Assembly (NCBI GenBank): GCA_049325595.1
Contig: JBMOLF010000009.1
Span: 1 to 64,000, forward strand
Length of the DNA: 64,000 nt
Source of the DNA: Candidatus Babelota bacterium
Lineage (GTDB): Bacteria; Babelota; Babeliae; Babelales; Vermiphilaceae
Direction: 5' to 3'
Of this stretch, positions 4,112-60,074 are shown piece after piece. Both the position numbers and the translations under genes were made by a program. Under the pieces are notes generated by a model. That model was not told the DNA's origin. It did no database searches and saw only the letters and a list, made by a program, of their open reading frames with translations. Each line of letters starts with the position of its first letter. Positions within the stretch are counted from its first letter, which is position 1.

Positions 4112-4351
4112 ATGAAGTTATATCAATTTTTTATGTTAATTAACATTACAATGCCTATTATAAGTATGGATAGATCGTGCTGGTGTCTAACAAAACTATT
4201 TAATTTACATAAAGTAAAAACGTATAGTGCAAATCAACACAATCGCACTAAATCAAACAAGAAAAATTTAGAAAAACAAATTAAAGCACAAAAATTATCG
4301 GGATATGATCAATCTTTTTTTTATGAACCTTATTTTCCGGAAAAACCATAA
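4112..4351 (+). CDS. Small hypothetical protein with possible signal peptide
   Basis: 79-aa ORF filling intergenic space; hydrophobic N-terminus followed by S-MD. Confidence 0.5.
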   Translation: MKLYQFFMLINITMPIISMDRSCWCLTKLFNLHKVKTYSANQHNRTKSNKKNLEKQIKAQKLSGYDQSFFYEPYFPEKP

Positions 4352-4359
4352 AGGCTTTT

Positions 4360-4614
4360 ATGTTCAAAAAAATTTTTCTCTTTTCTTTGTTAGTATATTC
4401 TCAACAAAACAATGCTATGTTAAATTCTTCAAATAATAAGTGTGGATTAGTCCAATCTGAAGAGTATTTTTCTTTTTATTCTCCTCAGGATAACACCTTA
4501 ATCCCTCTTATTCAAAGACTTAAAAATAGCGATGAAGCGCATGATCATCGCTATTTAAATCTATTAACATTTAGCATCATTGGCAAACGTCTACCATTAA
4601 TAAGTAAGCTTTGA
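4360..4614 (+). CDS. Small hypothetical secreted protein
   Basis: MFKKIFLFSLLVYSQQNNA signal-like N-terminus; follows previous ORF by 8 bp. Confidence 0.55.
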   Translation: MFKKIFLFSLLVYSQQNNAMLNSSNNKCGLVQSEEYFSFYSPQDNTLIPLIQRLKNSDEAHDHRYLNLLTFSIIGKRLPLISKL

Positions 4615-4621
4615 TAAACGA

Positions 4622-5761
4622 TTAGAGCATTTGCCTAATAAATTCAGGAAATGCCGTTGTTGGATTCACCTTATTAAAAGACTCTAGCCTAGAACGCATT
4701 GTCAATCGTAATTCTTCATTTTGCAACCATTGCGTTACCAACACATTAATGTCGTTCATATGTGTTATACTGGCGCCAAATCCATGTTTTTTAACAAAGG
4801 TATGGTTAAACCGTTCCCAACGCAATAAGGTGCCAGTTGCATCAAACAACATTGGTAAATTCATATAAATTAATTCGGCAACGCTCACTGAACCAGATTT
4901 AGAAATAGCAAAATCAGCCATAGCCATATATTCTGCTATGTTATGGGTAAAACCAACTATAGTGTAAGTGATGTGTTCAGGCACTTGGAATGTTTCTATT
5001 TTTTTTCTTAGAGCATCATACTTGCCAATACAAATTATAATATGAAAAGCTACTGGCACCATGATTAATTGTTCAAAAAAACTAATTATGCTTGATGAAC
5101 CTTGTCCACCCATCATAAGAAATATTACTGGTTTATTAGCCGGAACTTGATGTTGTTTTTTTAATTCGTACTTATCAAGTGGTTCAAAAAATTTTTTTCG
5201 TAAGGGAAAACCCGTGGTAATAATTTGATAAGAAGTTAATCCTGATGCAGCAATGGTCGTTTTTATAGATTCATCATCTAAAGCAGTTGTCATCTTTAGT
5301 TTATCATAATTAATTTTTTTCATACCATTTATAAATGATGTCGCATCAAGATCGGTAGGCACTACTATAAGAGGAATATTACAAGCTTGAGCAGCATCGG
5401 CTAATGCACCATTAATTATCGGCACAACAGAAATAACTAAATCTACTTTTGAGTCAGTAATATATCGTTTAAAAATGGTAGTAATTTTTTTTCTACGTAA
5501 TGCAAAATACCAGGTGCCCAGTTGATACACGATATTTAATACTGAAAACCAACGACGCTTTAAGCAATAATTATAAAAAACTTGTTCTGCTTCAAAAGAA
5601 CCTCTGGTAATTTTTTTTACCACATCAATGTCATAAAGAACATGCATAAAATCAATACTTGCAATATCGTAACTATCTGCAAGATAATCTTTAAGTGCCT
5701 GCGTGGCTGCAATATGCCCCGCACCACCAGAGCTACTTAATATAATAATTTTTTTCTTCAT
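4622..5761 (-). CDS. MGDG-synthase/UgtP-like diacylglycerol glycosyltransferase (GT28)
   Basis: SSGGAGHIAA, PTD, TGFPLR, MGGQG, ISKSGSVSVAE motifs. Confidence 0.85.
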   Translation of the reverse strand: MKKKIIILSSSGGAGHIAATQALKDYLADSYDIASIDFMHVLYDIDVVKKITRGSFEAEQVFYNYCLKRRWFSVLNIVYQLGTWYFALRRKKITTIFKRYITDSKVDLVISVVPIINGALADAAQACNIPLIVVPTDLDATSFINGMKKINYDKLKMTTALDDESIKTTIAASGLTSYQIITTGFPLRKKFFEPLDKYELKKQHQVPANKPVIFLMMGGQGSSSIISFFEQLIMVPVAFHIIICIGKYDALRKKIETFQVPEHITYTIVGFTHNIAEYMAMADFAISKSGSVSVAELIYMNLPMLFDATGTLLRWERFNHTFVKKHGFGASITHMNDINVLVTQWLQNEELRLTMRSRLESFNKVNPTTAFPEFIRQML

Positions 5762-5796
5762 ATCATCCTAAGACTTATCTCATCCCCTAATTAACA

Positions 5797-7164
5797 TCAT
5801 TTACCAACACAAAACTCATTAAAAACCGCGTCCATAGTTTGCTCACTCACTGTTTTCCCTGTTAGCTCACTCAAATGCGCTAATGCGTCATTAAAATGTA
5901 TTGAAAGCAATTCATATTGTGGATTTTCCAACATATGCAAGATTTCATTAAGCTTGTTTTCAAGCGCACCTAACAACTTAAATTGACGAGAATTTAATAA
6001 AAAAGGGGAATCGTATTGCGACATCAATGAAATTATTTTTTCTTGAATCTTTTTTTCTAATGCATCAATACCAATCTTATTCTGTGCAGATAAAGCGACA
6101 CCACTAAAATTATTTGAATCAAAATCAACCACTTGGTCAATTTTATTGCAAACGGTAATTATTTTTGCTTGATGTTGAGCCAAGATTTGACTATATGCCT
6201 CTAATTCTTGAGAAGATAATAAACGAGATGCATCGTAAACCAGCAAAACAATATCTGCTAGAGCTGCCTGTTCTAACGAGCGCTTTATACCTTCTTGTTC
6301 TACAATATCATCGGTAATGCGCAGCCCAGCTGTATCAATAAGAGTCCAAAAAGTACCAAACCGAGTAACACTTGCCTCTATTGAGTCTCGCGTTGTACCG
6401 GCAATAGGGGTAACAATTGCACGAGCAGATCCCAATAAAGCATTAAAAAGAGAGGATTTGCCAGCATTTACCGAACCGACTAGTGCAATTTTAATACCTG
6501 AACGGATGTGCTGCTGTTTATCAAATGATTTTTTTGCACGGGAAATAGTTGTTAATATTTCAGACACCATTACTTTTATTTGATCGGCAAACTCTAGTTC
6601 TTCGTCAATAAATTCAAAGCTCGCCTCACAAAAAGCCATTGCTTTTAGCAACTGTTTTTCAATAATGCTAATCCAATGAGAGAAGCTCCCATCAACTTGA
6701 GCAAGTGCGCGTTTTAAAGCTTGTTGTGTTTGAGCGCCAATCAATTCATTTATTGCTTCTGCCTGTACTAAATCAATTTTTTTATTAAGAACTGCTCTTT
6801 TAGAAAATTCACCTTCTTTAGCCAAACGAGCACCAAAAGATAATGCAATATTAATAATTTCTTCAATAATAAATTGATTATTATGACAACTAATTTCTAT
6901 TACATCTTGACCAGTAAACGTTCTGGGTGCTTTCATAACCAAAAAAAGCACATTATCAATCGAATTACCATGTACATCTCGCACACTTCCATAATGTATA
7001 GTATGCGAGTCAACATCAACGATACGCTTACCTGAAGCAAGCTTTGCCATGCTATCAGCTATAACTAAAGAATTAGCGCCAGACATGCGAAGCAATGCAA
7101 TAGCTCCACTTCCTATGGGAGTGCATTGTGCAATTATGGTTTCATCATCATGAGCAAGAAACAT
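5797..7164 (-). CDS. mnmE: tRNA modification GTPase MnmE
   Basis: APRTFTGQDVIEISCH, GSVNAGKSS, GTTRD, DTAG, NKID and terminal FCVGK. Confidence 0.97.
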   Translation of the reverse strand: MFLAHDDETIIAQCTPIGSGAIALLRMSGANSLVIADSMAKLASGKRIVDVDSHTIHYGSVRDVHGNSIDNVLFLVMKAPRTFTGQDVIEISCHNNQFIIEEIINIALSFGARLAKEGEFSKRAVLNKKIDLVQAEAINELIGAQTQQALKRALAQVDGSFSHWISIIEKQLLKAMAFCEASFEFIDEELEFADQIKVMVSEILTTISRAKKSFDKQQHIRSGIKIALVGSVNAGKSSLFNALLGSARAIVTPIAGTTRDSIEASVTRFGTFWTLIDTAGLRITDDIVEQEGIKRSLEQAALADIVLLVYDASRLLSSQELEAYSQILAQHQAKIITVCNKIDQVVDFDSNNFSGVALSAQNKIGIDALEKKIQEKIISLMSQYDSPFLLNSRQFKLLGALENKLNEILHMLENPQYELLSIHFNDALAHLSELTGKTVSEQTMDAVFNEFCVGK

Positions 7165-7170
7165 TTAGTA

Positions 7171-7902
7171 TTAAACCTTTTTTCGGCTTTCAATTATCAA
7201 ACGCAAGCCACGCGTAGACATTTTAAATTTTTCACGAAGCACTTCATAAATAAGATTGCTCCAACTCTTAAAAAGAACTTCTTCTTGCTTTGGATCTTGG
7301 CTGATTGGCTCGCTTAACTCAACTTTTAAGAAATTACCACTAAAATGAGCGTTGGTATTAATAGATGGATAATCCATCATTATCAAAGTTTCTTTAAGCC
7401 ATTCTTGAGTAGCATCAACCATTTCTTGATTCCAAACTACATCTGAACGTTGCTCTCGCTGATCAATACGACCAGTTGAGCGTGTACGAAAATCTGATCG
7501 CTGCTCTCGTCTACCATCTTTTCTGTAATCGCGACGACTATCCTGTCTGCGTTCTGTTCTTTCAGGCTGCATGCCAACTTTTTCTTCAGAAGCTTCTTGC
7601 ACTGGCGCTGGGCGTACTGCTTGGCGCGCTTGTTCTGGACGACGCTCTCTTCTTTCAACCGGTTGGCGTTGCTCTTGAGTTTTTGGCTGTTTAGAACGGG
7701 TTGATTCTGCAGCACCTTGTGTTCCACTTGCGGGCTGATTAAAAAATAACGCAATTTTTGCCGCTTTAGTGGTTATTCCTAAAAAATTTTTTTGCGGAAG
7801 CTCTAATATTTTTACGGTAAATTCTTGTGGTTTACCAGCACGGTTCCAACAATTTTCTATAGCTTTAAAAACTGACGAAGCTTCTTCCATCATTGATTTC
7901 AT
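7171..7902 (-). CDS. jag: Jag/KhpB (EloR)-like protein: Jag_N domain, low-complexity linker, degenerate KH, no R3H
   Basis: N-terminus VKILELPQKNFLGITTKAAKI fits Jag_N; immediately upstream of mnmE, the usual synteny. Confidence 0.75.
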   Translation of the reverse strand: MKSMMEEASSVFKAIENCWNRAGKPQEFTVKILELPQKNFLGITTKAAKIALFFNQPASGTQGAAESTRSKQPKTQEQRQPVERRERRPEQARQAVRPAPVQEASEEKVGMQPERTERRQDSRRDYRKDGRREQRSDFRTRSTGRIDQREQRSDVVWNQEMVDATQEWLKETLIMMDYPSINTNAHFSGNFLKVELSEPISQDPKQEEVLFKSWSNLIYEVLREKFKMSTRGLRLIIESRKKV

Positions 7903-8060
7903 TAGTCAAAACCTTTTGATTAAATGTATTTTATCTATTTACCTTATGATGCCCAGCTGTAGCTTTCATTATGGGTGAACTCAACATGTAGATTGGTTTT
8001 TCATGAACTTAGCAAGATTTTAATCGGATGCCAAATTACCATTGGCCAGATAAGCATTAT

Positions 8061-8136
8061 TGGAGCGGGAAACGGGACTCGAACCCGCAACCTTTGCCTT
8101 GGCAAGGCAACGCTCTACCAATTGAGCTATTCCCGC
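8061..8136 (-). tRNA. tRNA-Gly (GCC)
   Basis: Reverse complement GCGGGAATAGCTCAATTGGTAGAGCGTTGCCTTGCCAAGGCAAAGGTTGCGGGTTCGAGTCCCGTTTCCCGCTCCA: cloverleaf, anticodon GCC, encoded CCA. Confidence 0.98.
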
Positions 8137-8210
8137 GTTGATATTTTTATAGAGTAAATGCTACCATGCTGGTGACTTTTGTCAATAAATCTCAGCGAGA
8201 ATATACTGTT

Positions 8211-8714
8211 TTAGCTCTTTTTCCTGTTATTTTGATCACCAAGGTCGGTATTTACCTGGCGAGTAGTAACAAGAGTTACTTTTTTTACATTATCTTTTAA
8301 CGGTATTCCCGACATAGACCTATAATAAATAAAGTTGCCGCCTTGCGGTTTTAATTGTGTACCAGTCCAAGTTAGTATAATTTTTTTGGGTCCACTTTCA
8401 GTTTTTGCCGCTTCGAAGCTATAAAGCTGCTCAATAACTGCTCCTTTTTTGTTGGTAAAAGCGATAATTAATTGGGTCGGCTGACTGGTTTTTAATCCTG
8501 CTGCTCGGGCACAAAGATTAATGGGCTGTTTAATAAAAACAGTTTTTTCTCCATTAATAAGAGTAAGGGTAATAGGGCTATGGCTCTTATTCTTTATTTC
8601 AAACGAATATTCAGCCACAGGAAAATAGAGTGGTTTTGTCTGGTCAACTTCCGTAATAAACTGGTGGCCTACTATATTTAATGAATATAACAATAAGACA
8701 ATATATTTCTTCAT
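8211..8714 (-). CDS. Secreted hypothetical protein, 'FELxNK...PQxG...GxxLxxNV' family
   Basis: Signal-like MKKYIVLLLYSLNIVG; motifs shared with ORFs at 21549 and 61509; start moved to the MKKY ATG. Confidence 0.75.
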   Translation of the reverse strand: MKKYIVLLLYSLNIVGHQFITEVDQTKPLYFPVAEYSFEIKNKSHSPITLTLINGEKTVFIKQPINLCARAAGLKTSQPTQLIIAFTNKKGAVIEQLYSFEAAKTESGPKKIILTWTGTQLKPQGGNFIYYRSMSGIPLKDNVKKVTLVTTRQVNTDLGDQNNRKKS

Positions 8715-8852
8715 AACGCACAAGTCCTTTTTTGTTATTAAGATAGCGCCTTGATAAACTTAAGCTCAATATTTGGTAGGTAAGCTTCATTGATTAAGTT
8801 ACCCAATCAGGGTAATACTAAATAAAAACAATTTAAGAAAAAGCAAACTGAC

Positions 8853-9477: not shown

Positions 9478-10224
9478 TTACGCTTGTAATATTTTTAGTA
9501 AATTGGCATTAAGTTTTTGTTTGATTTCTTCATACATTTTGGCTTGAAGATGATCTTTTTCTACTTCAAGTTGCTGTGAATGAGCCTCTATTATTTTTAT
9601 TAGATTCTCATTAAAAGCAAAATCCATGTCGTTTGATTGTTTGAGGTATGAAGCTGCCTCATCAGATATTTTTGCAACTAATTGGTATTTATTGAGACGA
9701 TTTTCTTTTAAAACATTGATTAAATTTGTTTTAGATTCTTCATCTTCAGCTCGTTTTATTTGTTTCTGTATTCGCGTAAAAAGAAAATCTTTTTTATTAA
9801 TTTCATTATGCAACCCAACAATTTCTTCCTTTTTATTGCCGCCGGAATACCAATTGAAAACCTTTAATGCAAGCAATTGCTCCCCTAACATAAGCTTTTG
9901 TGAAACAGATTGACTGACATAAGTATGCAGCCCTAAATAAGCTCCTTGCTCGCCAATTTCTTTAATATTTTTCCATACCGACACAATCGGATTCGCTTTG
10001 GGATAATGATAATTATGTATAGTAGGGGAACCAACTTGTACATAGGGATTGTTACACTTAAATTCTTTCACTGTCTTAAATTGAGCATTAACAACATGAT
10101 CGGTAATAATATGATTAAAAGTTTCTTTGCCTGCTGAAGCTTCATGATTTGTATTATTTTCCATAGAGCTTCCAGTAAAAACTATTAATCCGCATAGCGC
10201 AGTAGTCAAAAATATTTTTTTCAT
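9478..10224 (-). CDS. Secreted hypothetical protein, coiled-coil-rich C-terminus
   Basis: Signal MKKIFLTTALCGLIVFTGSS then MENN; 4-bp overlap with ybeY stop. Confidence 0.75.
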   Translation of the reverse strand: MKKIFLTTALCGLIVFTGSSMENNTNHEASAGKETFNHIITDHVVNAQFKTVKEFKCNNPYVQVGSPTIHNYHYPKANPIVSVWKNIKEIGEQGAYLGLHTYVSQSVSQKLMLGEQLLALKVFNWYSGGNKKEEIVGLHNEINKKDFLFTRIQKQIKRAEDEESKTNLINVLKENRLNKYQLVAKISDEAASYLKQSNDMDFAFNENLIKIIEAHSQQLEVEKDHLQAKMYEEIKQKLNANLLKILQA

Positions 10225-16820: not shown

Positions 16821-18020
16821 TTATTCAACGATAAACCGCTTAATAGAGGGATTTATGCGCGTTACAATTTCATAATTTATAGTTTTTATGCGATCTGCTA
16901 ATTGATCAGCATGAACATCTGGATGTTCGCCAAGTAAAATGATTTCATCATCAAGAGTTACTTGAGGAATATCAGTTATATCAACCATCATAAGATTCAT
17001 GGCTATACGGCCAATAATTGCTGCCTTTATCCCTTTTACAACTACATACCCATTATTAGAAAAACCGCGATCATATCCATCCCAGTAACCGATTGGTAAC
17101 GTTGCAACTTTTGTTTCACGCTGAGTTATATAGGTACAATCATATCCAATAGATGTGCCAGAAGGAACTTGTTTTATTTGTATCGGTTTAGTTTTCCAGG
17201 TCATAACGGGTTTTAAAGAGAATGTAGGATATTTTTGTTTTGTTAACAATGCATTTTCTAAAGATGGCCATAATCCATAGATGCCAATGCCCAATCGAGC
17301 CATTGTAAAATGACTCATATCAAGTGCTGTTATAGCAGCAGAGCATGAGATATGTCTTAGGGGAATATGTATACCATCTTTTTCTAGTTGTTGAACAATG
17401 TTAGCAAATCGAACAATTTGTGTTTCTGCAAATGAATTTTTTTCCCGTTCAGAATTTGCAAGATGAGAAAAAATACCACTCACTTGAATAAATTCAAGAC
17501 GAACGACAGAGTTTACTAATGCAATAGCTTCCTCTTGACAGGCACCTATACGCGACAAACCTGTATCAATTTTAAGGTGAATGAGAGCTTTTTTTTGTAA
17601 TTTTTTTGCCACCTCATTATAGTAACATATGGTTTTAAAATCATATGCTACTAGTTCAATATCATTAGAAATAGCATCCCTTACGTGAGCATCGATAATA
17701 CTTAAAACTAAAAGTGGTTTGGTAATACCCAGCATTCTTAAGCCCATCGCTTCTGAAAGGCTAACAACACATAACATGCTCACCGCTTCTAAGCTATTCA
17801 AAATTTGGGCAATGATTCCAATGTCATGACCATAGGCATTGCTTTTGACAACCGGCGCTAACAAAGTGTCTCCAACAATATTTTTATATTGCAAAATATT
17901 GTGAATCAGAGCTGAGCGAGAAATTTCAACCCATGTTTTTATATGTTTGCATAGGGCTACATTTAGACAGCAGTTTTGTGATTGATTAGGATGAACTGAT
18001 AACACGGGGAATCCCTTCAC
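16821..18020 (-). CDS. alr: Alanine racemase family protein (paralogue 1)
   Basis: VVKSNAYGH PLP lysine, HLKIDTGLSRIG, SIGY catalytic Tyr, GYWDG, TINYE; start uncertain. Confidence 0.9.
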   Translation of the reverse strand: MKGFPVLSVHPNQSQNCCLNVALCKHIKTWVEISRSALIHNILQYKNIVGDTLLAPVVKSNAYGHDIGIIAQILNSLEAVSMLCVVSLSEAMGLRMLGITKPLLVLSIIDAHVRDAISNDIELVAYDFKTICYYNEVAKKLQKKALIHLKIDTGLSRIGACQEEAIALVNSVVRLEFIQVSGIFSHLANSEREKNSFAETQIVRFANIVQQLEKDGIHIPLRHISCSAAITALDMSHFTMARLGIGIYGLWPSLENALLTKQKYPTFSLKPVMTWKTKPIQIKQVPSGTSIGYDCTYITQRETKVATLPIGYWDGYDRGFSNNGYVVVKGIKAAIIGRIAMNLMMVDITDIPQVTLDDEIILLGEHPDVHADQLADRIKTINYEIVTRINPSIKRFIVE

Positions 18021-19116
18021 CTATCCGAGTAAGTAATTCTCTTGGATTATAACTTTGCATTATTATTGCAAGATATGACGGATTTATTAATTCTTGAGAA
18101 CCTATTAACGTTACTTGATCCCCAATTTTTGCATCTATTGTTGTTATGTCTACCATCATAGTTGTCATAGCAATGCGACCTACCACAGGTACAAAAGAAT
18201 TATTGATCATTACCAATGCATTGTTGCTAAATCTACGATCATACCCATCAAAATAACCAACTGGGACTATAGCAATCTTTGAATTCTTTTCTGCTTTAAA
18301 AGTGCGATCATAGCCAACATAATCACCAACTTTTAGTTCGCGTATGAATTCAATTTTCGAATGCCAAGATAAAACAGACTCAAGTTCAAATTCAGGAAAT
18401 TTTTTTTTAGTATTTTCTTTATTAGCAACTGATGGCCATAATCCATAAATTCCTAATCCAACACGAACTAAATTGGTATCCCCAAGTTCATATGCTGTTG
18501 TTGCTGCGGTGTTAGCAATGTGCCTAAAGGGTATTGTAATCCCTGCATATGCTAATTGTTGCAAAACGTGATTAAATAATTCTATTTGCTGGACAGTAAA
18601 TTGACTATCTTGTTGCGCTGCTTCTGCAAGATGACTATAAATCCCTTCCAAAACTACCCCTGCAAGTTGTTTAATTGTCAAGGCCACCGATAACGCTTCA
18701 GAAGCTAAAAACCCAAACCGAGATAATCCCGTATCAATTTTTACATGAATTTTAATTGGCCGTATAGATTGTTTACCAATTTCAGAAAGTTGTTGCACTG
18801 TTTGCATCTCGGTAACCATGATCGATATATCAAACAATGAAAGTAGCTTTGGGTCGTCATCAAGATGATACATTGCTAATATAGGTTTTGTTATCCCTTG
18901 TTTTCGCAATAAAATTGCTTCAGATAAGCTCGCAACAAAAAACCAATCCACATGGTTATTTAGCTGTAACAATTTGCCAATTTCTATTAAGCCATGACCG
19001 TAGGCATTACTTTTAATTACCACACCTAGCAAACGACCTTTGCATGCTTTTTTATAGTGTGCAATATTATTTTTTAGAGCAGTGGCATTTAGAGTGATAG
19101 TTGACCTGTTATTCAT
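17986..19116 (-). CDS. alr: Alanine racemase family protein (paralogue 2)
   Basis: VIKSNAYGHG, HVKIDTGLSRFG, YVGY, GYFDG; start placed at MNNRS. Confidence 0.88.
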   Translation of the reverse strand: MNNRSTITLNATALKNNIAHYKKACKGRLLGVVIKSNAYGHGLIEIGKLLQLNNHVDWFFVASLSEAILLRKQGITKPILAMYHLDDDPKLLSLFDISIMVTEMQTVQQLSEIGKQSIRPIKIHVKIDTGLSRFGFLASEALSVALTIKQLAGVVLEGIYSHLAEAAQQDSQFTVQQIELFNHVLQQLAYAGITIPFRHIANTAATTAYELGDTNLVRVGLGIYGLWPSVANKENTKKKFPEFELESVLSWHSKIEFIRELKVGDYVGYDRTFKAEKNSKIAIVPVGYFDGYDRRFSNNALVMINNSFVPVVGRIAMTTMMVDITTIDAKIGDQVTLIGSQELINPSYLAIIMQSYNPRELLTRIGEGIPRVISSS

Positions 19117-19179
19117 TGCAATAGAAATGAGTAAAAAATGATCTAGCAAAAACAGGTATTAGTATAAAGTAGTCTTAGT

Positions 19180-22655: not shown

Positions 22656-23396
22656 ATGGACAAAAAGAATAATAAACCAGTTGGTGAATTAATTTATGGC
22701 ATTCATCCCTTGATAGAAGTATTAAAGGCAAAGCGCCGTAAGGTTATCAGCATTTACACAACCAAGCCAGAGCCAAAAGCATGGCAACAACACATTGCTC
22801 CTTTAATTGCTGAAAAAAGAATCCCTATTCAATATGTACAAAGACCTATTTTGGATCGCATGGCAGGCACAACTGATCATCAAAGTATTGTTGCTTGGGT
22901 ACAACCATTTGTATTTCGCTCTAAACCTTTCGATACTCAAAAACATCCTTTTTTATTAATGCTTGATGGCATACAAGACACCAAAAATTTAGGCGCTATT
23001 TTGCGCTCTGCTTATTGCACAGGAGTATCTGGCATTATTCTCACTAAAAAATTTAGCGCTCCAATTAATGCTGCCACATTAAAAGCATCTGCTGGACTTG
23101 CTGAACATCTAGAAATACATATAGCTCAAACTCCATTAACTGCTGCGCAAGATTTAACAAAACAAGGCTACCATTTGTACCTTGCAGCATTTAATGGCCA
23201 AGATGCTACTACTGTGAATTATACAAAGCCATTAGTAATTGTAATTGGAAGTGAAGGAGAAGGAATCAGTCAAGGAATGCAAAAATTTGGCACAGTTGTA
23301 ACACTGCCACAACGAACACCAGATATTTCTTATAACGCTTCAGTTGCAGCAGGGATTTTACTTTTTATTATTTCACAAAATATTAAATTATCTTAA
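22656..23396 (+). CDS. rlmB: TrmH/SpoU RNA methyltransferase (23S rRNA G2251 RlmB-like)
   Basis: IYGIHP, HQSIVA, LDGIQDTKNLGAILRSA, IGSEGEG, SYNASVAAG. Confidence 0.88.
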   Translation: MDKKNNKPVGELIYGIHPLIEVLKAKRRKVISIYTTKPEPKAWQQHIAPLIAEKRIPIQYVQRPILDRMAGTTDHQSIVAWVQPFVFRSKPFDTQKHPFLLMLDGIQDTKNLGAILRSAYCTGVSGIILTKKFSAPINAATLKASAGLAEHLEIHIAQTPLTAAQDLTKQGYHLYLAAFNGQDATTVNYTKPLVIVIGSEGEGISQGMQKFGTVVTLPQRTPDISYNASVAAGILLFIISQNIKLS

Positions 23397-23626
23397 CGAT
23401 CAGAAAGTGGACTTTCATTGGTATTTTTTATTTGGCCAATGGGTCCCCATTCAACTCCTGTCATATAAACATTTTTCAATGCATCATAAGCGAGATTTTT
23501 TACCCCTGAAGAACTTCTTTTTCTATGATTTTTGGGTAATTGCTTTATATTATTTTTTTCTTCCATGCTCCAAGCTAAACATGGAATTGCAAGAAACATT
23601 ACAATAAAAAACATTGAAACTTTCAT
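23393..23626 (-). CDS. Small secreted hypothetical protein
   Basis: Signal MKVSMFFIVMFLAIPCLAWS then MEEK. Confidence 0.6.
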   Translation of the reverse strand: MKVSMFFIVMFLAIPCLAWSMEEKNNIKQLPKNHRKRSSSGVKNLAYDALKNVYMTGVEWGPIGQIKNTNESPLSDR

Positions 23627-23818
23627 ATAAACCCTTTTTGGCAAGAAAAATACTAGCATTATAGGGTAAGAAAAATTTATAAGATTGCAAAAAAAATTTA
23701 TCTATCACTCAATTGCTGCATGCAAAGCTGGAAAAGTGTTGACTATTAAAACATAAAAATAATAAAAAGAAAGAAAGTATCGCCTTTAAACATTGTTTTG
23801 GGGAAAGTAGGGAAAACA

Positions 23819-32782: not shown

Positions 32783-33376
32783 ATGACCCCACAAGAATTC
32801 AAGCAACAATTACTCAATAAACTTTATGAACCTTATAAAAAATGTACCATGTGTCCACTTGGTTTAATGGGAAGAAAAAATGTTGTATTTGGACAAGGAA
32901 ATCCAGATGCCGACTTAATGTTTATAGGAGAGGGGCCAGGACAGGAGGAAGATAATCAAGGGTTGCCATTTGTTGGGAGATCGGGGCAACTACTCAATAA
33001 AATTTTACAAGCAGTCAACATGTCCCGCGAAGAGGTTTTTATCACCAATATTGTAAAATGTCGTCCACCTAATAATAGAAAACCTATGCCCCAGGAAAGC
33101 GAGACCTGCAAAAACTTGCTCCTCATTAACCAAATTAAAATTATTAGGCCTACCATTATTTGCACACTTGGATCGGCCGCAATTCAAGGCCTTCTTAATG
33201 ACTATGACATTAAAATAAGCAAAATTCGTGGAAGTTTCTTAAGTTATCAAGAAATTCCTGTTTTGCCCACGTATCACCCTGCTTATATTTTGCGAAACCC
33301 TAAGGAACTAGATACCCTCTATACCGATATTGAACATGCAGTAAAATATGCAACAACCTGTACCAAAAAAAGCTAA
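32783..33376 (+). CDS. udg: Uracil-DNA glycosylase family 4
   Basis: CxxC, GEGPG..ED..G.PFVGRSG, NIVKCRPPNNR, TYHPA. Confidence 0.95.
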   Translation: MTPQEFKQQLLNKLYEPYKKCTMCPLGLMGRKNVVFGQGNPDADLMFIGEGPGQEEDNQGLPFVGRSGQLLNKILQAVNMSREEVFITNIVKCRPPNNRKPMPQESETCKNLLLINQIKIIRPTIICTLGSAAIQGLLNDYDIKISKIRGSFLSYQEIPVLPTYHPAYILRNPKELDTLYTDIEHAVKYATTCTKKS

Positions 33377-34881
33377 GGCTGTAATGGCGTATCTCGCTTT
33401 AAATCAAGACGATTTGATGCACCCTTTTCCATTGTTTCAATAAAATATAAAAGCAGCTTTAATTCATAGCTCGGTTCTTTAATCGACTCATATAACTCGA
33501 GCTCTTTGCTTACCAATCGCTCGCTAAATTCTGTATATAAATAATATTTTGTTGCTTGAGAATCAATTACCACATATTGGGTAGTGTTGCCACTTTTTAT
33601 TATAGATAAACTATAATAATGACCTATTCCTTTACCCATTTGTGTTTTTTCTTCATTGCCTACCACAAGCGTGTAAAAAAATTGATCTTTTTTTAATCCA
33701 TCTTGTATAATCTGCTTAGTTTTTTCTACAACTTGTTGCATAGAGGGTTCAGCCAACTGATAATACTCATCATTTACCAATAACAATGTGGGTAAAAATG
33801 CTATCTTGTCTTTAATCGGACCAAATGCTTTTGCTTGGAAAAATTTTTCTATTTCTTCTATAGAAGCCCATTTAATACAACCATAGACATTTATAAAACT
33901 GGCCGCCTCTGTAGAACTTGGCACCGATTTAAGAAAATTAACATCACCCGAACTGACAAAATCAAACATTTGTAAAGAATTACGCAATGCAAGTGTTGGA
34001 CAAGCGCCAACAGTCTCTGAAACTTCATCTTGATTTATCGTTTTAAGTTGTATTAATTGAACAGCCCTATTGGATATGCCAAGCTCAGCAGATATATCAA
34101 TCCAACAAGGAAGCTTTTGTATTTGTAGCTTAGTTTTTTCTAATGCAGCTTGTTCGCCCTCAATGCCTTGCTCTTTTATTTTTTGGCTAATCTCAACAAT
34201 TTGCCAATCTGGTTGAGGAATTTTTACTACTTTTGAATAATGAACAGGCAACACACTTTCAACTGTTTGGCCATTGATTTTTATCGTTTCAATGCGAGGA
34301 TATAAGGGACAAAGCCCAAGCTCTTGTAAATTATTTACTGGAACAAGAGAAGCAACTTCACTTCCAACTCCCCTTTTTTCACCTAAGGAATCAAGCGTTG
34401 CCAAAACCAATCCCTCTAAATCAACAAAGCCTTCGGGCTTATTTGTTGCAATTCTATAGGTAATAATACTGCTCAAGAGGCTATTCAAAAAATCGACATT
34501 CAAAGGCAAAGCTTCTTCACTTGTTGCATAACCAACTAGCTCTTCCTCTAAATCTTTAATATCTGAAAGTCGGTGTTTTGACTGAACCTCAACTGCACGA
34601 CGCGACAATTCATCATTAAGACTGCTAGCAAGAGCCGATTCCCAGGGATTTCTAAATTGCTTATTTTTTAGATAATTCAATACTAGCTTAACATCAGCCT
34701 CATCGGCCACTCGCGGATTAAATCTTCCGCCCCTTAATTGGTTTGCCCACTCATCAACAATCGACTCTATACGAATTGACTCCTCAATGGGCTCCTCTTG
34801 CTCACGCTCCATACAAAATACAATACCAATTAACGCAACAGAAAAACCCATAAGGAATAGGAATTTTTTACAAAACCTCAT
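33373..34881 (-). CDS. Secreted hypothetical protein with candidate papain-fold Cys-His-Asp triad
   Basis: Signal then MERE; NQ..GACPTLALRN, GHYYSL, YVVIDS in the C-terminal half. Confidence 0.6.
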   Translation of the reverse strand: MRFCKKFLFLMGFSVALIGIVFCMEREQEEPIEESIRIESIVDEWANQLRGGRFNPRVADEADVKLVLNYLKNKQFRNPWESALASSLNDELSRRAVEVQSKHRLSDIKDLEEELVGYATSEEALPLNVDFLNSLLSSIITYRIATNKPEGFVDLEGLVLATLDSLGEKRGVGSEVASLVPVNNLQELGLCPLYPRIETIKINGQTVESVLPVHYSKVVKIPQPDWQIVEISQKIKEQGIEGEQAALEKTKLQIQKLPCWIDISAELGISNRAVQLIQLKTINQDEVSETVGACPTLALRNSLQMFDFVSSGDVNFLKSVPSSTEAASFINVYGCIKWASIEEIEKFFQAKAFGPIKDKIAFLPTLLLVNDEYYQLAEPSMQQVVEKTKQIIQDGLKKDQFFYTLVVGNEEKTQMGKGIGHYYSLSIIKSGNTTQYVVIDSQATKYYLYTEFSERLVSKELELYESIKEPSYELKLLLYFIETMEKGASNRLDLKRDTPLQP

Positions 34882-34999
34882 ACCCTTTTCCTTGTGAAAA
34901 ATTACAAATATCAATTTTAAAATAACAAATCGCCAATATCTTATTCAATAAAAAAATTAAATACTGCTTTGTTTATAAAAAAATGGCCAAAGATAGGCG

Positions 35000-45761: not shown

Positions 45762-46151
45762 ATGCAGGTAAAATATACTTTTTTATTTATTATTGCTTTT
45801 GTTCCACTACTTTCTCACGCGTATGTTTTCAGAGTTAGTAATGAAACCAATCATCGTATTAATGTAACTCTTAATGAAATTGGGCGATGGCGTAACAGAA
45901 CTCATCAAGTAGATCCGCGTAGTACTATTCAAATAAACACCGGCATTTTTTGTGTAAATAGAATCGATGCGCTGGTTCCATCTTTTGATTTTATAAATCG
46001 TTTGCAATATCAACTGGAACTTCGTGGAAATGCCTGCAGAAATAGAAATTTTGTAATAAGAAGCCGCACGGTTATGCGCAAAAGCATTGTACATCATATT
46101 GTTCCACAACCGCCTCATCCCGCTGAAGAAATATACATAGAAGAGGTGTAA
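45762..46151 (+). CDS. Small secreted beta-rich protein, 'YxxRVxNxT' family
   Basis: Signal ending SHA; YVFRVSNET, NTGIFCVNRI, GNACR. Confidence 0.82.
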   Translation: MQVKYTFLFIIAFVPLLSHAYVFRVSNETNHRINVTLNEIGRWRNRTHQVDPRSTIQINTGIFCVNRIDALVPSFDFINRLQYQLELRGNACRNRNFVIRSRTVMRKSIVHHIVPQPPHPAEEIYIEEV

Positions 46152-46230
46152 GATTAAAAAATTATTTAATATTGTTTATTTGTAAATATTGTCGCTGTTA
46201 TACTAAAAGTAAAAAGGGGAGAGAGTACAT

Positions 46231-46602
46231 ATGAAATATAAATTATTAGCGCTATTTCTAATTACGGGCGTTTATAACATAAATGCTTATATAATGAGAG
46301 TTCACAATACGACCGATGGTATTGTTTCGGTTGCCATACGAACAACAGCTGGGCCAACTTACACACAAGATATTGATGCGCATGGATTTTGGCAAGTTGA
46401 TACCATTGGCTGGTGTCCAAGAGAAATTTCGGTTTCAGGAGTAACTGGCCCTAACGTTGGCTTATCTAATACCAACTCTAATATTACCGGTAATCGTTGC
46501 CGGAGCAGAACTATTCACATTGTTCCGCGTTTACCGTTAGCCCGAAATTTACAAACTAATATTGTGCAATATCAAGGACTTGATATTCTTCTTTCTAATT
46601 AA
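46231..46602 (+). CDS. Small secreted beta-rich protein, 'YxxRVxNxT' family
   Basis: Signal ending INA; YIMRVHNTT, DTIGWCPREI, GNRCR. Confidence 0.82.
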   Translation: MKYKLLALFLITGVYNINAYIMRVHNTTDGIVSVAIRTTAGPTYTQDIDAHGFWQVDTIGWCPREISVSGVTGPNVGLSNTNSNITGNRCRSRTIHIVPRLPLARNLQTNIVQYQGLDILLSN

Positions 46603-46613
46603 AGGATATAGTC

Positions 46614-47000
46614 ATGAAAATAAAATTATTGATCATCGCATTATGTGTTACCTCAATAGCACATGCATACAGATACCGTGTAAATAATAATACTCAAGGA
46701 CAAGTTTACGTTGAATTAAATGCTATTGGTAGGTGGTCAAACCCTCACAATGTTATCGAGCCGGGTCAAAGTTGGGAAATTAATACACGCGGCTACTGTG
46801 TAAACAGAGTTACTGCTATTGGCCGTAGTGGCGTGGTCGAAGGGTTACATACAACTCATGAAGTGCGTGGTATAGCATGCCAAGGTCGTACATTTAATAT
46901 ACGTGCATTAGGTGAAATACGCGATGTACTAGAACGAGTTGATGAAAGCGGCAGACCATTATATGTGCCACAAGCATTGAGAATCGAAGATTCTAATTAA
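46614..47000 (+). CDS. Small secreted beta-rich protein, 'YxxRVxNxT' family
   Basis: Signal ending AHA; YRYRVNNNT, NTRGYCVNRV, GIACQ. Confidence 0.82.
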   Translation: MKIKLLIIALCVTSIAHAYRYRVNNNTQGQVYVELNAIGRWSNPHNVIEPGQSWEINTRGYCVNRVTAIGRSGVVEGLHTTHEVRGIACQGRTFNIRALGEIRDVLERVDESGRPLYVPQALRIEDSN

Positions 47001-55633: not shown

Positions 55634-55638
55634 ATTTT

Positions 55639-56745
55639 TTACTCGGTGTTAGATAACATATTTTGTATTGGCCGCTTCCCTTTTTCCAACATATTTTTTC
55701 TTTCTCTGGCCCTCAATTCATCAATTGTTGGTGCAAATGTTTCACGTTCTTCAAGTCGTTTTAATTGCTCTCTTGTTATTTGATCTGCCGTTCTTCTTTG
55801 GGTGTCTCGTGCTGGCGGCTTGGCAATAGTATCACGCAATTCGTAGTAAATGGTGGTTTCTCTGCCATTTCTTATTACTTTAACTGGAATTGTTCGATTT
55901 GTCTTTAATGTAGTAAGTTCTTGGTAAATAGTAAAACGATTTGCCGTAGTTGTTGCCGGAATATCGTTAATAGCAATCACCATATCGCCACGCTCTAAGC
56001 CTATTGCAGCAGCAAGTGACGGAGGGTTTATCGTGCCAATACGACAGCCAATGCTAGCCCCTTGACTATACACACCAGTTAAATCAAGCATATCGATAAA
56101 TTGTGCAAGGCTATGAACTCTGCCAGCAAATTCATGTACATTTACCATAAATTTATTTGATGAAATAGGTTTGATAACAGATGACCAATCTTCAATAAAC
56201 GTATAAGCAGGATCTGATTTTGCATCACGTTCTTTAAGGTACAATACTTCTTGCTGGCCATTAGAACGTAAGAATATAACTTTATTACTCATAATCCGAA
56301 TAAGTTGTGCATCTTCAATACGATCACCAATTTGATAACTGGATTCTTGTCCAGTTGCATTGTCGGCAATAATCGCTCTGTTTCTTGTGTCATCATGAAC
56401 AATCACAATTATGCCACGCAACGTTATAGCCAGTGGCTCTTGAAATTGCGGCTTGGGCTCTTCTGGTTTGTAGATAGGATGCGGCGCGGGTGGCTCGGGT
56501 GCAACTGCCGTGAATGTTGGCACGCGCTCAATAGGCGCTTCAGGAATTACTGTATTGAATAAATCATTTTGGTATATTTTACTCAAATTAATTTGCGCAG
56601 ATGTTGTAGTAATTGGCTTTACATACTCGACAGGTACAATTTCTTCTCGCTCGGGAATAGATATAGACGAAAAGAGCATAAATCCGAGTACAGAGATAAA
56701 AAGGAAAAGGAGTGCGCTGTTTAAAAGCCAAAATGGTTGTCTCAT
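55639..56745 (-). CDS. gspC: Type II secretion protein GspC (TM, HR domain, PDZ)
   Basis: N-terminal TM, LRGII..RAII..Y.IGD.I.DA.L..I..NKV HR domain, GLERGDMVIAIND PDZ. Confidence 0.88.
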   Translation of the reverse strand: MRQPFWLLNSALLFLFISVLGFMLFSSISIPEREEIVPVEYVKPITTTSAQINLSKIYQNDLFNTVIPEAPIERVPTFTAVAPEPPAPHPIYKPEEPKPQFQEPLAITLRGIIVIVHDDTRNRAIIADNATGQESSYQIGDRIEDAQLIRIMSNKVIFLRSNGQQEVLYLKERDAKSDPAYTFIEDWSSVIKPISSNKFMVNVHEFAGRVHSLAQFIDMLDLTGVYSQGASIGCRIGTINPPSLAAAIGLERGDMVIAINDIPATTTANRFTIYQELTTLKTNRTIPVKVIRNGRETTIYYELRDTIAKPPARDTQRRTADQITREQLKRLEERETFAPTIDELRARERKNMLEKGKRPIQNMLSNTE

Positions 56746-56852
56746 TCATTCATTCCTTGTGATAAGTACCTTTCACACAATACCCCTCATATTTGCATTT
56801 TGTCAAGTTCCATAATTGTGTGAAAATGACTTACCGTTGCGGCCTTTGCGTA

Positions 56853-57845
56853 TCACGGTGACGGTATTGTTTGCAAGATTTTATTGATAACCATGTCGGG
56901 GCTGAGTCCATCCGCTTCAGCTTGGTATGTTAATACTAAGCGATGGCGCAAAGCGGGAAGAGCTACTGCTTTTATATCATCAGGCGTAACAAAATGACGT
57001 TTTCTTAAAAACGCATATGCTTTTGCTGATTGATATAATGTTATGGTGGCTCGCGGTGAAACCCCCGATTGAATATAAGATTTTAAATTGGTCAATCCAT
57101 AACTTTCAGGTGCTCGTGTCGCAAAAATAATATTTACCAAATATTCAATTATCTTGTCATCAACATAAACAGCTTCTACTAATTTTTGAGCAAGTAGAAT
57201 ATCTGCTTCAGTTAAAATTTGTATTAGGTCGTTAGTATTGCGAGAGCGCAGAAGAAGTTCTTTTTCTTCATGCTTATTAGGATAGTTTACCAATAGTTTA
57301 AACATAAAGCGGTCTACTTGAGCTTCAGGCAACTGATAGGTTCCTTCTTGCTCAATAGGATTTTGTGTTGCAAAAACTAAAAATGGTTCTTGCAGCTTAA
57401 ATGTTTGAGATCCGATAGTTACTTGTTTTTCTTGCATTGCTTCAAGTAAAGCTGCCTGCACTTTTGCCGGCGCACGATTTATTTCATCGGCAAGAATAAG
57501 ATTTGCAAAAATAGGGCCTTTTTTGGTCTCGAACTCTTGTGTTTTAGGATTGTATATTAACGTTCCGATAACATCTGATGGTAATAAATCTGGTGTAAAT
57601 TGTATGCGATTAAATTTAAGCCCCAACGCTTTGGTGAGCGCTTTAATCATAGTTGTTTTTGCAACCCCTGGCACTCCTTCAAGAAGAATGTGCCCATCAC
57701 ATAAAATAGCGATCATCATAAATTGTATAATGTCCTGATGACCAATAATAACTTTGCCTACTTCGTGACTAAGCCCTTGAAATTGAGCAGTTGTATCTTT
57801 TATTTGTTCAATGATAGAACTATCTGGCAGTGCTGTTTCTATCAT
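56853..57845 (-). CDS. MoxR family AAA+ ATPase
   Basis: LLEGVPGVAKT, RIQFTPDLLPSD, LADEINRAPAKVQAALLEAMQE, ATQNPIEQEGTY.LPEAQ.DRF. Confidence 0.96.
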   Translation of the reverse strand: MIETALPDSSIIEQIKDTTAQFQGLSHEVGKVIIGHQDIIQFMMIAILCDGHILLEGVPGVAKTTMIKALTKALGLKFNRIQFTPDLLPSDVIGTLIYNPKTQEFETKKGPIFANLILADEINRAPAKVQAALLEAMQEKQVTIGSQTFKLQEPFLVFATQNPIEQEGTYQLPEAQVDRFMFKLLVNYPNKHEEKELLLRSRNTNDLIQILTEADILLAQKLVEAVYVDDKIIEYLVNIIFATRAPESYGLTNLKSYIQSGVSPRATITLYQSAKAYAFLRKRHFVTPDDIKAVALPALRHRLVLTYQAEADGLSPDMVINKILQTIPSP

Positions 57846-57984
57846 AGGATACCTTTCATTATCGATCGCGCATTACTAATTAAAAAATAATGGTTTCATT
57901 GTATCAAGCTTATGGTAATCTTACAACTGATACCATTCGTATGTAAAACAAGTACAATTTTCTTTTTTTCGTAGGTTATACACA

Positions 57985-58509
57985 ATGATTCTTTCTGGTA
58001 AAGAAATAAAAAATAAATTAGGCAAACAGATTATAATTGACCCATTTAATGAAAAACAGCTTGGCCCTAATAGTTATAATTTGCGTCTTCACAATGAATT
58101 AATGGTATATGAAGATCCTATTTTGGATATGAAAAAAAAGCATGCAACTAAATCCTTAATTATTCCACCAGAAGGTCTTGTATTAGAAACGGGTAAATTG
58201 TATTTAGGAAGAACAATGGAATACACTCAAACTGACGAGTATGTTCCTATGCTCGAAGGTCGTTCTTCAATTGGTCGTCTTGGCTTGTTTATTCACATCA
58301 CTGCTGGTTTTGGCGATGTTGGATTTAATGGTTTTTGGACACTAGAAATTTTCTGCGTACAACCAATTCGTATTTACCCAGGCGTTGAAATTTGCCAAAT
58401 CTTCTATCACTCAATAGAAGGCGCATATGAGCGTTATTCGAGTAATAAATATCAAAATAATCGCAGCATTCAAGCAAGTATGTTATATAAAGATTTTGAG
58501 TTGTTATAA
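57985..58509 (+). CDS. dcd: dCTP deaminase
   Basis: MILSG, PNSYNLRL, GRSSIGRLG, TAGFGDVGF, TLEI, ICQI, KYQ. Confidence 0.95.
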   Translation: MILSGKEIKNKLGKQIIIDPFNEKQLGPNSYNLRLHNELMVYEDPILDMKKKHATKSLIIPPEGLVLETGKLYLGRTMEYTQTDEYVPMLEGRSSIGRLGLFIHITAGFGDVGFNGFWTLEIFCVQPIRIYPGVEICQIFYHSIEGAYERYSSNKYQNNRSIQASMLYKDFELL

Positions 58510-58534
58510 AACATAACAATAACGGGTAAATACT

Positions 58535-59191
58535 ATGCTTTTTAAGTATCCAATATGGTTACTGTGTTTTTTCTCTTGTCTTAACAGTATGGAAAAAAAT
58601 CCAGCCATATATGATTGGAGTATGTTTAAAACTGATTTAGAAAGAAGAGCAAAAAGAGCAGAGCATATGTTTGCTTGTAGGGATACAGTAACAGCGTCGA
58701 TTTTAATGGAAAATGCCTTTAATGATTGTTGTGCATTTAATGTTGTAGATCAAGCAAGCAAACAAGATCAACTCAAATGTTCAAGCGCGCTAGCATTGAG
58801 GGCAGGATTGTTTGCGCGAGCCAATTATGATAATGAAAAAGCAGTTAGTTTTTTTCAATATGCAGCGGATAATTTTCCAGAAAGTGCAATAGGTTATGAG
58901 GGCTTCTATTGCCTGGGTGCAATTTATTTAGAGAAAAATAATTTAGAATTAGCGAAAAAACATCTACACGGTGCATACGAAAAATGGTTTCCAGAGCTCG
59001 ATAAAGGGCCCGTATTGTTTAGCTTGGGCGAACTGTATCAAAAAAAAGGAAAATTAGCTCAAGCAAAAAAATTTTATCAAGAATGTCTAGATGAAGCTCA
59101 AGATTATGACGTCCAAAGACTAGCTGAAGGTGCACTCCAATTGCTAGAAGGAACAGTTTGTAATGCAAATATATCAAGAAATAAAAGATAA
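58535..59191 (+). CDS. Secreted tetratricopeptide-repeat protein
   Basis: Signal then MEKN; YCLGAIYLEKNNLELAKK and FSLGELYQKKGKLAQAKKFYQECL TPR motifs. Confidence 0.8.
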   Translation: MLFKYPIWLLCFFSCLNSMEKNPAIYDWSMFKTDLERRAKRAEHMFACRDTVTASILMENAFNDCCAFNVVDQASKQDQLKCSSALALRAGLFARANYDNEKAVSFFQYAADNFPESAIGYEGFYCLGAIYLEKNNLELAKKHLHGAYEKWFPELDKGPVLFSLGELYQKKGKLAQAKKFYQECLDEAQDYDVQRLAEGALQLLEGTVCNANISRNKR

Positions 59192-59426
59192 ATTTTAAAC
59201 AAAAGCATCCATAATTACTTCTTGCTTATTGTAAAGCGGAAATTGTTGGATTATTAATATGAAATGGTTTTTATAGTTTATTTATCATATTGTTTGTTAA
59301 TGTTTTAACTGACTGCTCAGAAAAAAATGCCGACCTATTTTGGTCGGAGTGTCTAAAATTGGCGCAAGAATATTTGATGGCTAAGTGGAAATTTTATTAA
59401 TTTTGTTTCTAAAAAAGGATTTTAAG

Positions 59427-60074
59427 ATGTTACGCATGCGCTTTTATTGTTTACTTGTAGCATTAATAAGCACTAATCTATGTATAGCCATGGAGTATGA
59501 TGATATTAATAAAACACTGGAGAGACTTTACGATACAGCGCGTAATCTTAAAAATCTTAATACGCATGACCAATTTGAATTGTTTAATGAAACATTTGAA
59601 CTTTTTAAAATGATAAAGCATGATCCTGAAATAGAATTGATCAAACAAGAACATCTAGCACATCTTGCTTTTAGAGCCGCGACAATAGCTTTTTTAGATA
59701 ATAGTGAGATTGATAGAAGTATTCCGTTGTATAGCTTTGTAGTACATTCTGATGCGCCGACTGATATTCGTTCTGCTGCTGCACTTTCTTTAGCGAACAT
59801 ATATTTACGTAAGAAAAAATTCATAGCAGCTGAATTTTATAACGCGATCGCTCAGAAAAATTGGCCTCAAGAAGAAAGTAAGGGTTTTTTATTTTTATCT
59901 AAAGCACGAGTACAGTTTGCAAAAAATAACTTGGCAAGTGCACAGTCTCATTATGAATTATGTATGCAAAATACTGATGAACCAGACATCGTAGAGAGTG
60001 CATTAGAGGAATTATCTGTTTTGAAAAAAATGAAACAAAATGATAATAAGAACTGCAAATGTATTATTCTTTAA
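59427..60074 (+). CDS. Secreted TPR-like protein with C-terminal CaaX box
   Basis: Signal ending CIA then MEYD; TPR-like helices alignable with the upstream gene; ends NCKCIIL-stop; AAGGA RBS before ATG 59427. Confidence 0.8.
   Translation: MLRMRFYCLLVALISTNLCIAMEYDDINKTLERLYDTARNLKNLNTHDQFELFNETFELFKMIKHDPEIELIKQEHLAHLAFRAATIAFLDNSEIDRSIPLYSFVVHSDAPTDIRSAAALSLANIYLRKKKFIAAEFYNAIAQKNWPQEESKGFLFLSKARVQFAKNNLASAQSHYELCMQNTDEPDIVESALEELSVLKKMKQNDNKNCKCIIL

Follow-up and report, generated by a model that had tools for sequence, protein, structure and literature searches.

The DNA examined here, referred to throughout as the window, is the 64,000-nucleotide stretch at positions 1-64000 of contig C9 in the genome of a Candidatus Babelota bacterium, a protist parasite of the phylum Dependentiae (genome G000; 1.286 Mb, 24 contigs, ∼35% G+C). 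It encodes FtsA/FtsZ, two secretins and C/L/M-like proteins of a type II secretion system (T2SS). The subject of this study is a methionine that follows the signal peptide in several exported proteins of the window. A preliminary description had named seven open reading frames (ORFs) in which a Sec-like signal runs directly into a new Met, mostly Met-Glu or Met-Asp, and had proposed this junction as the signature of a class of secreted effectors. Over the whole genome, roughly one in seven to eight exported proteins has a conserved Met directly after the predicted cut, mostly with an acidic residue next, and the pattern looks lineage-wide rather than like a private effector tag.

Genes of G000 were called with a crude gene caller of our own, which gave 1325 genes, and 1317 predicted proteins were screened. 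Proteins were classified as signal-like if a net charge of at least +1 was followed by an uncharged run of 8–24 residues with a mean Kyte-Doolittle value of at least 1.9. 663/1317 proteins passed this heuristic, as did 27/61 genes of the window. A junction Met was counted from the end of the hydrophobic run to +8. Cleavage sites were also predicted from the -3 and -1 residues by a program with no knowledge of Met (the blind predictor), which gave 633 sites in G000. Proteins with Met followed by Glu, Asp, Gln or Asn (M[EDQN]) after the core are called the Met class (121 proteins; 120 in class comparisons), and 435 signal-like proteins had no such Met.

Junction-Met proteins of the window

The proposed combination of a signal peptide with Met-Glu or Met-Asp held for five of the seven named ORFs, those at 9478, 23393, 33373, 58535 and 59385 (Table 1). 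All five combine a basic n-region with a hydrophobic core and small residues at -3 and -1; an ATG and a Glu codon follow, which makes Met the +1 residue. The blind predictor cut right before Met in 4/5 and one residue earlier in 9478. The signal heuristic was passed by these five plus the ORF at 4360, in which Met is followed by Leu and the blind predictor favors VYS|QQNN. The ORF at 4112 was not signal-like and had no homolog in the same-genus genome G001. The proteins that had been set apart as having no junction Met were read the same way here: an M16 protein (IHA|VCDL), an outer-membrane protein (IHA|KCGF) and small proteins with A|Y and A|A junctions. Three adjacent small paralogous exported proteins of the window have HA|Y or NA|Y junctions and belong to no Pfam family.

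In three ORFs an internal ATG, preceded in each case by an AAGG/AGGA-like stretch, is a plausible start. 23393-23659 likely starts at Met12 (23626), with AAAAAGGG ahead of it; 33373-34914 likely starts at the ATG at 34881, with AAGGAAAAGGGT upstream; and 59385-60074 likely starts at the ATG at 59427, with AAGGA upstream. A search of RNA runs returned none covering positions 57900-60300.

The junction Met of 33373-34914 recurs in its relatives. Its G001 ortholog shares 49.5% identity and has the junction AVFS|MHREQEEP after a signal peptide that has diverged completely. Met is kept in 6/6 family members in the database, counting its own record, and the next residues are E, E, E, D, H and H. Searches of Pfam and of PDB sequences gave no match for this protein (best PDB E-value 0.08). 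Atlas hints to C58, Cif or C39-like (papain-like effector) proteases score 0.80-0.82, which is chance level, as shuffled proteins reach it one-third of the time. The candidate Cys protease is thus unverified. The orphan at 9478-10224 has no Pfam family, and no ortholog was found in 1.141 Mb of G001.

Table 1. Positions of the proteins discussed in the text. Positions are those of the window unless a contig or locus is given.
Feature	Position	Strand	Remarks
Orphan exported protein, 248 aa	9478..10224	-	Signal peptide 10224-10165; Met codon 10164-10162; TGSS|MENN
Small orphan exported protein	23393..23659	-	Met codon 23566-23564; AWS|MEEK, same cut by the blind predictor
Exported protein, ∼502 aa	33373..34914	-	Met codon 34812-34810; VFC|MERE
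Exported TPR protein, 218 aa	58535..59191	+	Met codon 58589-58591; LNS|MEKN; TPR_2 E=2.6e-6
Exported protein with polybasic CaaX box (KNCKCIIL)	59385..60074	+	Met codon 59490-59492; CIA|MEYD
Small ORF with signal-like N terminus, weak member	4360..4614	+	Met codon 4417-4419, then Leu; coding score 9.5
Small ORF, doubtful member, perhaps doubtful gene	4112..4351	+	Fails signal heuristic; low coding score (11.0)
Met-class barrel protein	C22:7198-8445 (L067:7201-8445)	-	A|MNLLRPYD; unannotated family, usually with paralogs
Signal protein with CaaX C terminus	C7:82316-83404		Candidate host prenyltransferase substrate
Signal protein with CaaX C terminus	C15:101998-104586		Candidate host prenyltransferase substrate
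Signal protein with CaaX C terminus	C15:170568-170936		Candidate host prenyltransferase substrate
Three small paralogous exported proteins	45762-47000		HA|Y or NA|Y junctions
Two alanine racemase genes in tandem	16821-18020 and 17986-19149	-

Methionine at the signal peptide junction genome-wide

Met makes up 8.9% of the last residues of the hydrophobic run in G000, compared with 1.6% of residues in mature parts. Among the 186 signal-like proteins with a Met between the run end and +8, the next residue was E in 59, D in 29, Q in 17, N in 16, H in 12 and L in 11, while K followed only once and L, I, F, Y and W together 22 times. Asp, Glu, Asn or Gln therefore follows the junction Met in 121/186 proteins, against a background of 22%. 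The M[ED] pair on which the effector proposal rested is far above background, occurring in 88/663 signal-like proteins, where 6.9 were expected from the dipeptide frequency of mature parts and ∼9 after correction for the definition of the run end. Using the blind predictor, Met was the commonest +1 residue, found at 79/633 sites (7.8 times background). Cys was next at 2.25 times, and Ala, Ser and Gly were not enriched at +1 among these G000 sites. Gln was predicted at +1 in 51/633 (8%, 1.6 times background). In five G000 contigs of <7 kb each (C2, C3, C4, C18 and C20), which may be contamination, the signal-like proteins have FAQ, AQ or C|Q-type junctions that look more Bacteroidetes-like than elsewhere in the genome. 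Chance is excluded by these genome-wide counts, and not by the window alone.

The 121 Met-class proteins form 96 BLAST clusters (73 singletons), too many for paralogy to account for the pattern. With paralogs removed, positions beyond the residue after the Met carry only 0.1–0.4 bits (K, N and E weakly), which leaves no extended motif, and no PEXEL/RxLR-like linear motif was found after the junction.

The same script was run on 1,141,000 of the 1,222,284 bases of G001, 'Candidatus Dependentiae bacterium Noda2021' (AP025250.1), which is of the same genus (enolase 86% identical). It gave 74 M[ED] proteins against 6.2 expected, and a +1 Met in 67/587 sites. The controls were 30 non-Dependentiae loci (526,562 bp) from Spirochaetes, Bacteroidales, Proteobacteria and others, and Firmicutes; L142 (Noda2021 itself) and the 4-kb fragment L172 were left out. 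95/464 control proteins were signal-like, with 2 M[ED] against 2.0 expected. G000 differs from the controls with p=5e-4 for M[ED] and p=6e-4 for M[EDQN] (Fisher), and the excess is restricted to the Dependentiae side of this comparison. As a positive control, the known preference of Bacteroidetes for Gln at +1 was recovered from 7 Bacteroidales loci (9/38 sites). Four other Dependentiae families were each sampled over 100 kb, and 3/4 of these small samples show the pattern. G034 had 7 M[ED] against 0.7 expected, with Met the top +1 residue (6/45); G072 had 3 against 0.5, and 8 M[EDQN]; and G066 had 2 against 0.8, and 6 M[EDQN].

The position of Met relative to the flanking residues was examined by anchoring the 121 sequences on a cut before it. 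In this register -1 was A40, S19, G18, T15 and C7, with A, S, G, T or C in 99/121, and -3 was L31, I21, S14, A14, T12 and V9, with L, I, S, A, T, V or C in 107/121. After removal of paralogs (96 proteins) -1 was A in 32%, S in 16%, T in 14% and G in 14%. Placing Met itself at -1 would put mostly F, Y or H at -3. The small -1 and small or aliphatic -3 residues of the Met-anchored register fit cleavage by signal peptidase I (SPase I) directly before Met, which we consider the probable site. The leaders appear otherwise ordinary, as core length and hydrophobicity are equal in the Met and non-Met classes. G000 has one SPase I gene, lepB, and PF10502 matches one 342-aa ORF on contig C1. SPase I is present in 61/61 Dependentiae genomes sampled. 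The S26 model matched the G000 LepB (C1:92612-93436) in two separate parts of a single ORF, suggestive of an insertion, and two tandem LepB genes occur in G067, G065, G025, G072, G068, G064 and G055.

A Met at this position might instead be a start codon. One form of this explanation has translation begin additionally or only at the junction ATG, so that cytoplasmic isoforms result (as raised in the preliminary description), or takes the leader for an untranslated extension of the ORF. Gene callers do sometimes start there, as in 6/120 database homologs of the barrel protein described below, with 3 more having truncated leaders, and ∼45% of G000 genes have no Shine-Dalgarno core anyway. Nevertheless, a Shine-Dalgarno-like core (≥4 nt) precedes the leader start in 56% of the 120 Met-class genes, similar to the 52% of non-exported genes, and precedes the junction ATG in 1.7%. 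Before 5172 random internal ATGs the figure is 6.2%. There is thus no internal ribosome-binding site at the junction. The leaders also have the full n/h/c architecture and are signal-like again in 48/56 orthologs, and an outer-membrane barrel needs its leader. We regard a second or mis-called start as highly improbable. Its practical trace is in annotation, where gene finders that start at the junction Met or within the leader hide the signal peptide, as in those 9/120 barrel homologs and the window protein's own record, P0121. The public gene calls P0017, P0025, P0026, P0027, P0040, P0118 and P0121 all take the junction Met or a leader-internal Met as their start.

In the second form, once-cytoplasmic genes gained their signal peptides through 5' extension or as grafted cassettes, and the old initiator Met survives. 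Young, lineage-specific genes are over-represented in the class, and AT-rich upstream DNA could easily encode leaders rich in Lys, Phe, Ile and Leu. Against this, residue 2 of 364 cytoplasmic proteins is mostly K, I, S, N or A, with E and D together at 7.4%, compared with 47% after the junction Met, and Shine-Dalgarno remnants are rarer there than before random internal ATGs. Mis-called starts, a dedicated second start and simple relic initiators are all disfavored by the Shine-Dalgarno and residue-2 results. No leaderless homolog starting at the junction Met was found among 56 orthologs or in within-genome paralog matches. We consider relic start codons improbable, and neither of the alternatives offered in the preliminary description is well borne out.

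Conservation also separates the junction Met from an inherited initiator. 860 reciprocal best hits linked G000 and G001, and 56/120 Met-class proteins had an ortholog. The leaders diverge in sequence, while Met is identical in 34/56 pairs (61%), and no other N-terminal position is conserved as well. Identity in the columns up to 12 residues away is 20–46%, and of the remaining Mets in these mature proteins 76/224 are conserved (34%; p=3.8e-4 versus the junction Met). That the junction Met outlasts every neighboring column and the other Mets speaks against a relic. The comparison suggests that the junction Met is maintained by selection.

Cargo of the Met class and the outer-membrane barrel

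The favored reading, to which we give somewhat better than even confidence, is that substrates of Dependentiae SPase I follow a lineage-specific rule of Met at +1, with an acidic residue at +2, as a variant of ordinary Sec signals akin to the Gln rule of Bacteroidetes. LepB, the single SPase I, would cut ordinary Sec signal peptides between a small -1 residue and Met, so that the mature exported protein would begin with Met-Glu or Met-Asp, less often Met-Gln, Met-Asn or Met-His. The rule would cover exported proteins generally, including secreted orphans, ankyrin, LRR, TPR and CaaX proteins, and at least one outer-membrane barrel. The benefit could be a P1'/P2' optimum for processing, or a mature N terminus that resists trimming or degradation, and in either case an adaptation of the export pathway rather than an effector address tag. 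Whether the gain is in processing efficiency or N-terminal protection is speculative.

The alternative put forward in the preliminary description is that the cut exposes a eukaryote-like Met-acidic N terminus that is stable or acetylated in the host cytosol, marking effectors exported by Sec and the T2SS. Cargo bears on this directly. Pfam searches (E≤1e-4) were made with the 120 Met-class proteins and 145 random draws from the 435 non-Met signal-like proteins, and found a family for 29/120 and 58/145, respectively (p=0.008). A G001 ortholog was found for 47% of the Met class, 67% of other signal-like proteins (p=7e-5) and 68% of the rest, with median identities of 40, 58 and 78. The junction Met is most frequent in the fast-evolving accessory secretome. 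The expected enrichment among orphans was found, and that among eukaryote-like repeat proteins was not significant (ankyrin, LRR, WD40 or TPR in 16/120 Met-class proteins versus 11/145, p=0.15).

Further evidence for effectors comes from the C termini. A CaaX box, mostly behind a basic tract, ends 5/120 Met-class proteins and 1/435 non-Met proteins (p=0.002), and that lone exception reads HIDA|MDDV by eye. The window protein 59385-60074 ends in KNCKCIIL, a candidate prenylation site. CaaX signal proteins, with C termini such as ...KKKKKRRNKICLVI, are candidate substrates of host prenyltransferases (Table 1). Met-class genes are also clustered, with 27 adjacent pairs against 10.4±2.9 in 2000 shuffles, although tandem paralogy is part of the cause. 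The residues after the junction Met, rich in E, D, Q and N and poor in K and hydrophobic residues, match as well: Met followed by D, E, N or Q is the substrate set of the acetyltransferase NatB, and Met-hydrophobic degrons are avoided. A passage of the Babela paper proposes that ankyrin proteins bearing signal peptides reach the amoeba cytoplasm, the T2SS being the only secretion system (PMC4378268).

Other results speak against an effector signature. 3/5 of the G000 CaaX proteins in the Met class are paralogs of each other, and 2/5 CaaX signal proteins of G001 have no junction Met. The only Pfam-confirmed F-box protein (E=1.9e-4) reads NA|SEQ. Ala, Ser or Gly at +1 would be stabilizing too, yet these residues are not enriched. 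Finally, the outer-membrane barrel keeps its Met in 103/120 homologs. The effector signature is thus supported in part only, by the richness in orphans and CaaX boxes; we hold it to be possible but unlikely, and then for the secreted part of the class. Less likely still is the specific proposal that the Met-acidic N terminus is a host-facing adaptation, one that would mimic a new eukaryotic protein, resist N-degron pathways and perhaps be acetylated by host NatB. If that were true, much of the host-directed secretome in a barely studied phylum would be recognizable from a simple sequence rule.

A link of the Met class to F-box proteins was tried and rejected. LPxE[ILVM] occurs soon after the leader in 8/120 Met-class proteins and 3/435 others, but among these Met-class proteins the best Pfam match was only 2EXR (E=0.0036), and about four paralog families account for the hits. 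Several enzymes of a type found in the eukaryotic nucleus or cytosol have signal-like leaders, namely a histone deacetylase, a SET-domain protein and four GNAT acetyltransferases, one of them RimJ/RimL-like (Acetyltransf_3). They lie at L050:13875-14903(-), L048:12346-12882(+), L037:9611-10183(-), L044:9936-10562(+), L041:17647-18414(-) and L013:7594-8199(+). Signal-like leaders were also seen on several AAA ATPases and a NUDIX protein.

The barrel protein was examined as a Met-class member with a place in the envelope. The family is present in 61/61 Dependentiae genomes sampled. An AlphaFold model from a 104-sequence alignment is a β-barrel (predicted local distance difference test, pLDDT, 93.1; predicted TM-score, pTM, 0.86), and its best matches among solved folds are the FapF transporter and the COG4313 outer-membrane channel (E=8e-14 to 2e-11; TM 0.70-0.76 by target). 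On this model the protein resides in the envelope. The junction column holds Met in 103 of the 120 best database homologs, with A54, G29 and S10 at -1. The core motif is conserved to a similar degree (N116, P111 and Y106 of 120). The mature N terminus of the family carries the conserved motif N-L-L-R-P-Y-D. A related-locus search with the barrel protein returned only Noda2021.

Barrel N termini were also read from 300-bp stretches of 20 other genomes. Met is found in 6/7 genomes examined of the window's own family, G000 and G001 included. In families f5, f13, f7, f3, f6 and f12 the position reads A|x-x-P-x-N with no Met, and Met is likewise missing there in f4 (12 genomes examined from these seven families; one further locus, in G040 of family f17, was unreadable). 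Since Met is missing in these other families, it is derived rather than ancestral. The barrel was already exported when it gained the Met, and then kept it, which speaks for pressure from the export pathway or a general benefit to the mature N terminus. This history, in which the signal peptide came before the Met, counts against both relic starts and a tag used by effectors only.

Several observations weigh against the lineage-specific +1 Met rule. The Met-less barrel families just described are one. A host-directed role would account at least equally well for the excess of CaaX boxes and orphans in the Met class. The junction Met is missing from most of the clear envelope housekeeping proteins, among them BamA, TamB, Skp, TolC, ZnuA, MlaD, S41, the secretins and M16, which makes the rule uneven across cargo; S49 and thioredoxins were likewise in the non-Met sample, and Amidase_3 was in the Met class. 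LepB features were not tied to the rule. Split or duplicated forms occur in several genomes and showed no relation to its strength in the few genomes measured. G067 gave 0 M[ED] in its 100 kb, against 0.4 expected. As the family samples are mostly positive and this one is zero, the pattern is widespread in the Dependentiae yet uneven. The signal and cleavage heuristics are also crude, and flag Rossmann-fold and transmembrane N termini as well (SecA, FtsH and MDH).

Comparison with known export systems

No published description of a +1 Met rule was found in the literature searched (supplements aside). The signal-peptide passages of PMC6561590, PMC4378268 and PMC11495043 do not mention it, and the words 'methionine', 'TM6' and 'Dependentiae' do not occur in PMC5837995. 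Signal-peptide proteins take up about half of the gene content of the Dependentiae (663/1317 here versus 95/464 in the controls), and a passage on Chromulinavorax gives 44% (PMC6561590).

In most respects the junctions resemble classical Sec signal peptides cut by SPase I. They share the basic n-region, the core of ∼12 residues, the small -1 and small or aliphatic -3 residues, a length mostly of 17–22 residues, and LepB. They differ in that +1 is Met in ∼12% of sites, the commonest residue there, and -3 is most often Leu or Ile. The 95 signal-like control proteins, unlike those of the Dependentiae, had no excess of Met at +1.

Two other signal types were compared. The lipobox of lipoproteins (L-x-x-C), cut by signal peptidase II, has the Leu/Ile-rich -3, the Ala, Gly or Ser at -1 and the single dominant +1 residue in common with the Met junction, which places Met where the lipobox has an invariant lipidated Cys. 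The window contains a real lipobox for comparison, AGC|G in the OmpA-family protein at 3394. Prepilin (class III) signals were considered and rejected; here the hydrophobic segment precedes the Met, polar or acidic residues follow, and Glu is the fifth mature residue in only 16%.

Host-directed systems offer a second set of parallels. Papers on Listeria LLO and ActA reportedly, to judge by their titles, describe N-end-rule control of Sec-secreted proteins. As in that system, the residue exposed by cleavage would set stability in the eukaryotic cytosol. The exposed residue in Listeria is said to be destabilizing, unlike the putatively stable Met-acidic N terminus here. Effectors prenylated at a CaaX box are known in Legionella. 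The window protein 59385-60074 and at least five other signal-peptide proteins share the Cys-aliphatic-aliphatic-X ending after a basic tract, whereas these candidates have Sec signal peptides in place of a type IV secretion signal.

The nearest parallel to a +1 Met rule is the Q-rule of Bacteroidetes, in which Gln at +1 of SPase I substrates is cyclized to pyroglutamate, as set out in passages of PMC5837995 and PMC10653852. Both are lineage-restricted preferences at +1 across many unrelated SPase I substrates. The Dependentiae differ in using Met rather than Gln, in a minority of substrates (about 12–18%) rather than most, and in being intracellular parasites of protists. We know of no modifying enzyme for the Dependentiae +1 Met. 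Gln at +1, found in most substrates under the Q-rule, is limited in G000 to the 51/633 sites given above. A lineage-specific +1 Met rule would join the Q-rule as only the second such case and would provide a cheap, testable handle on protein export in the Dependentiae.

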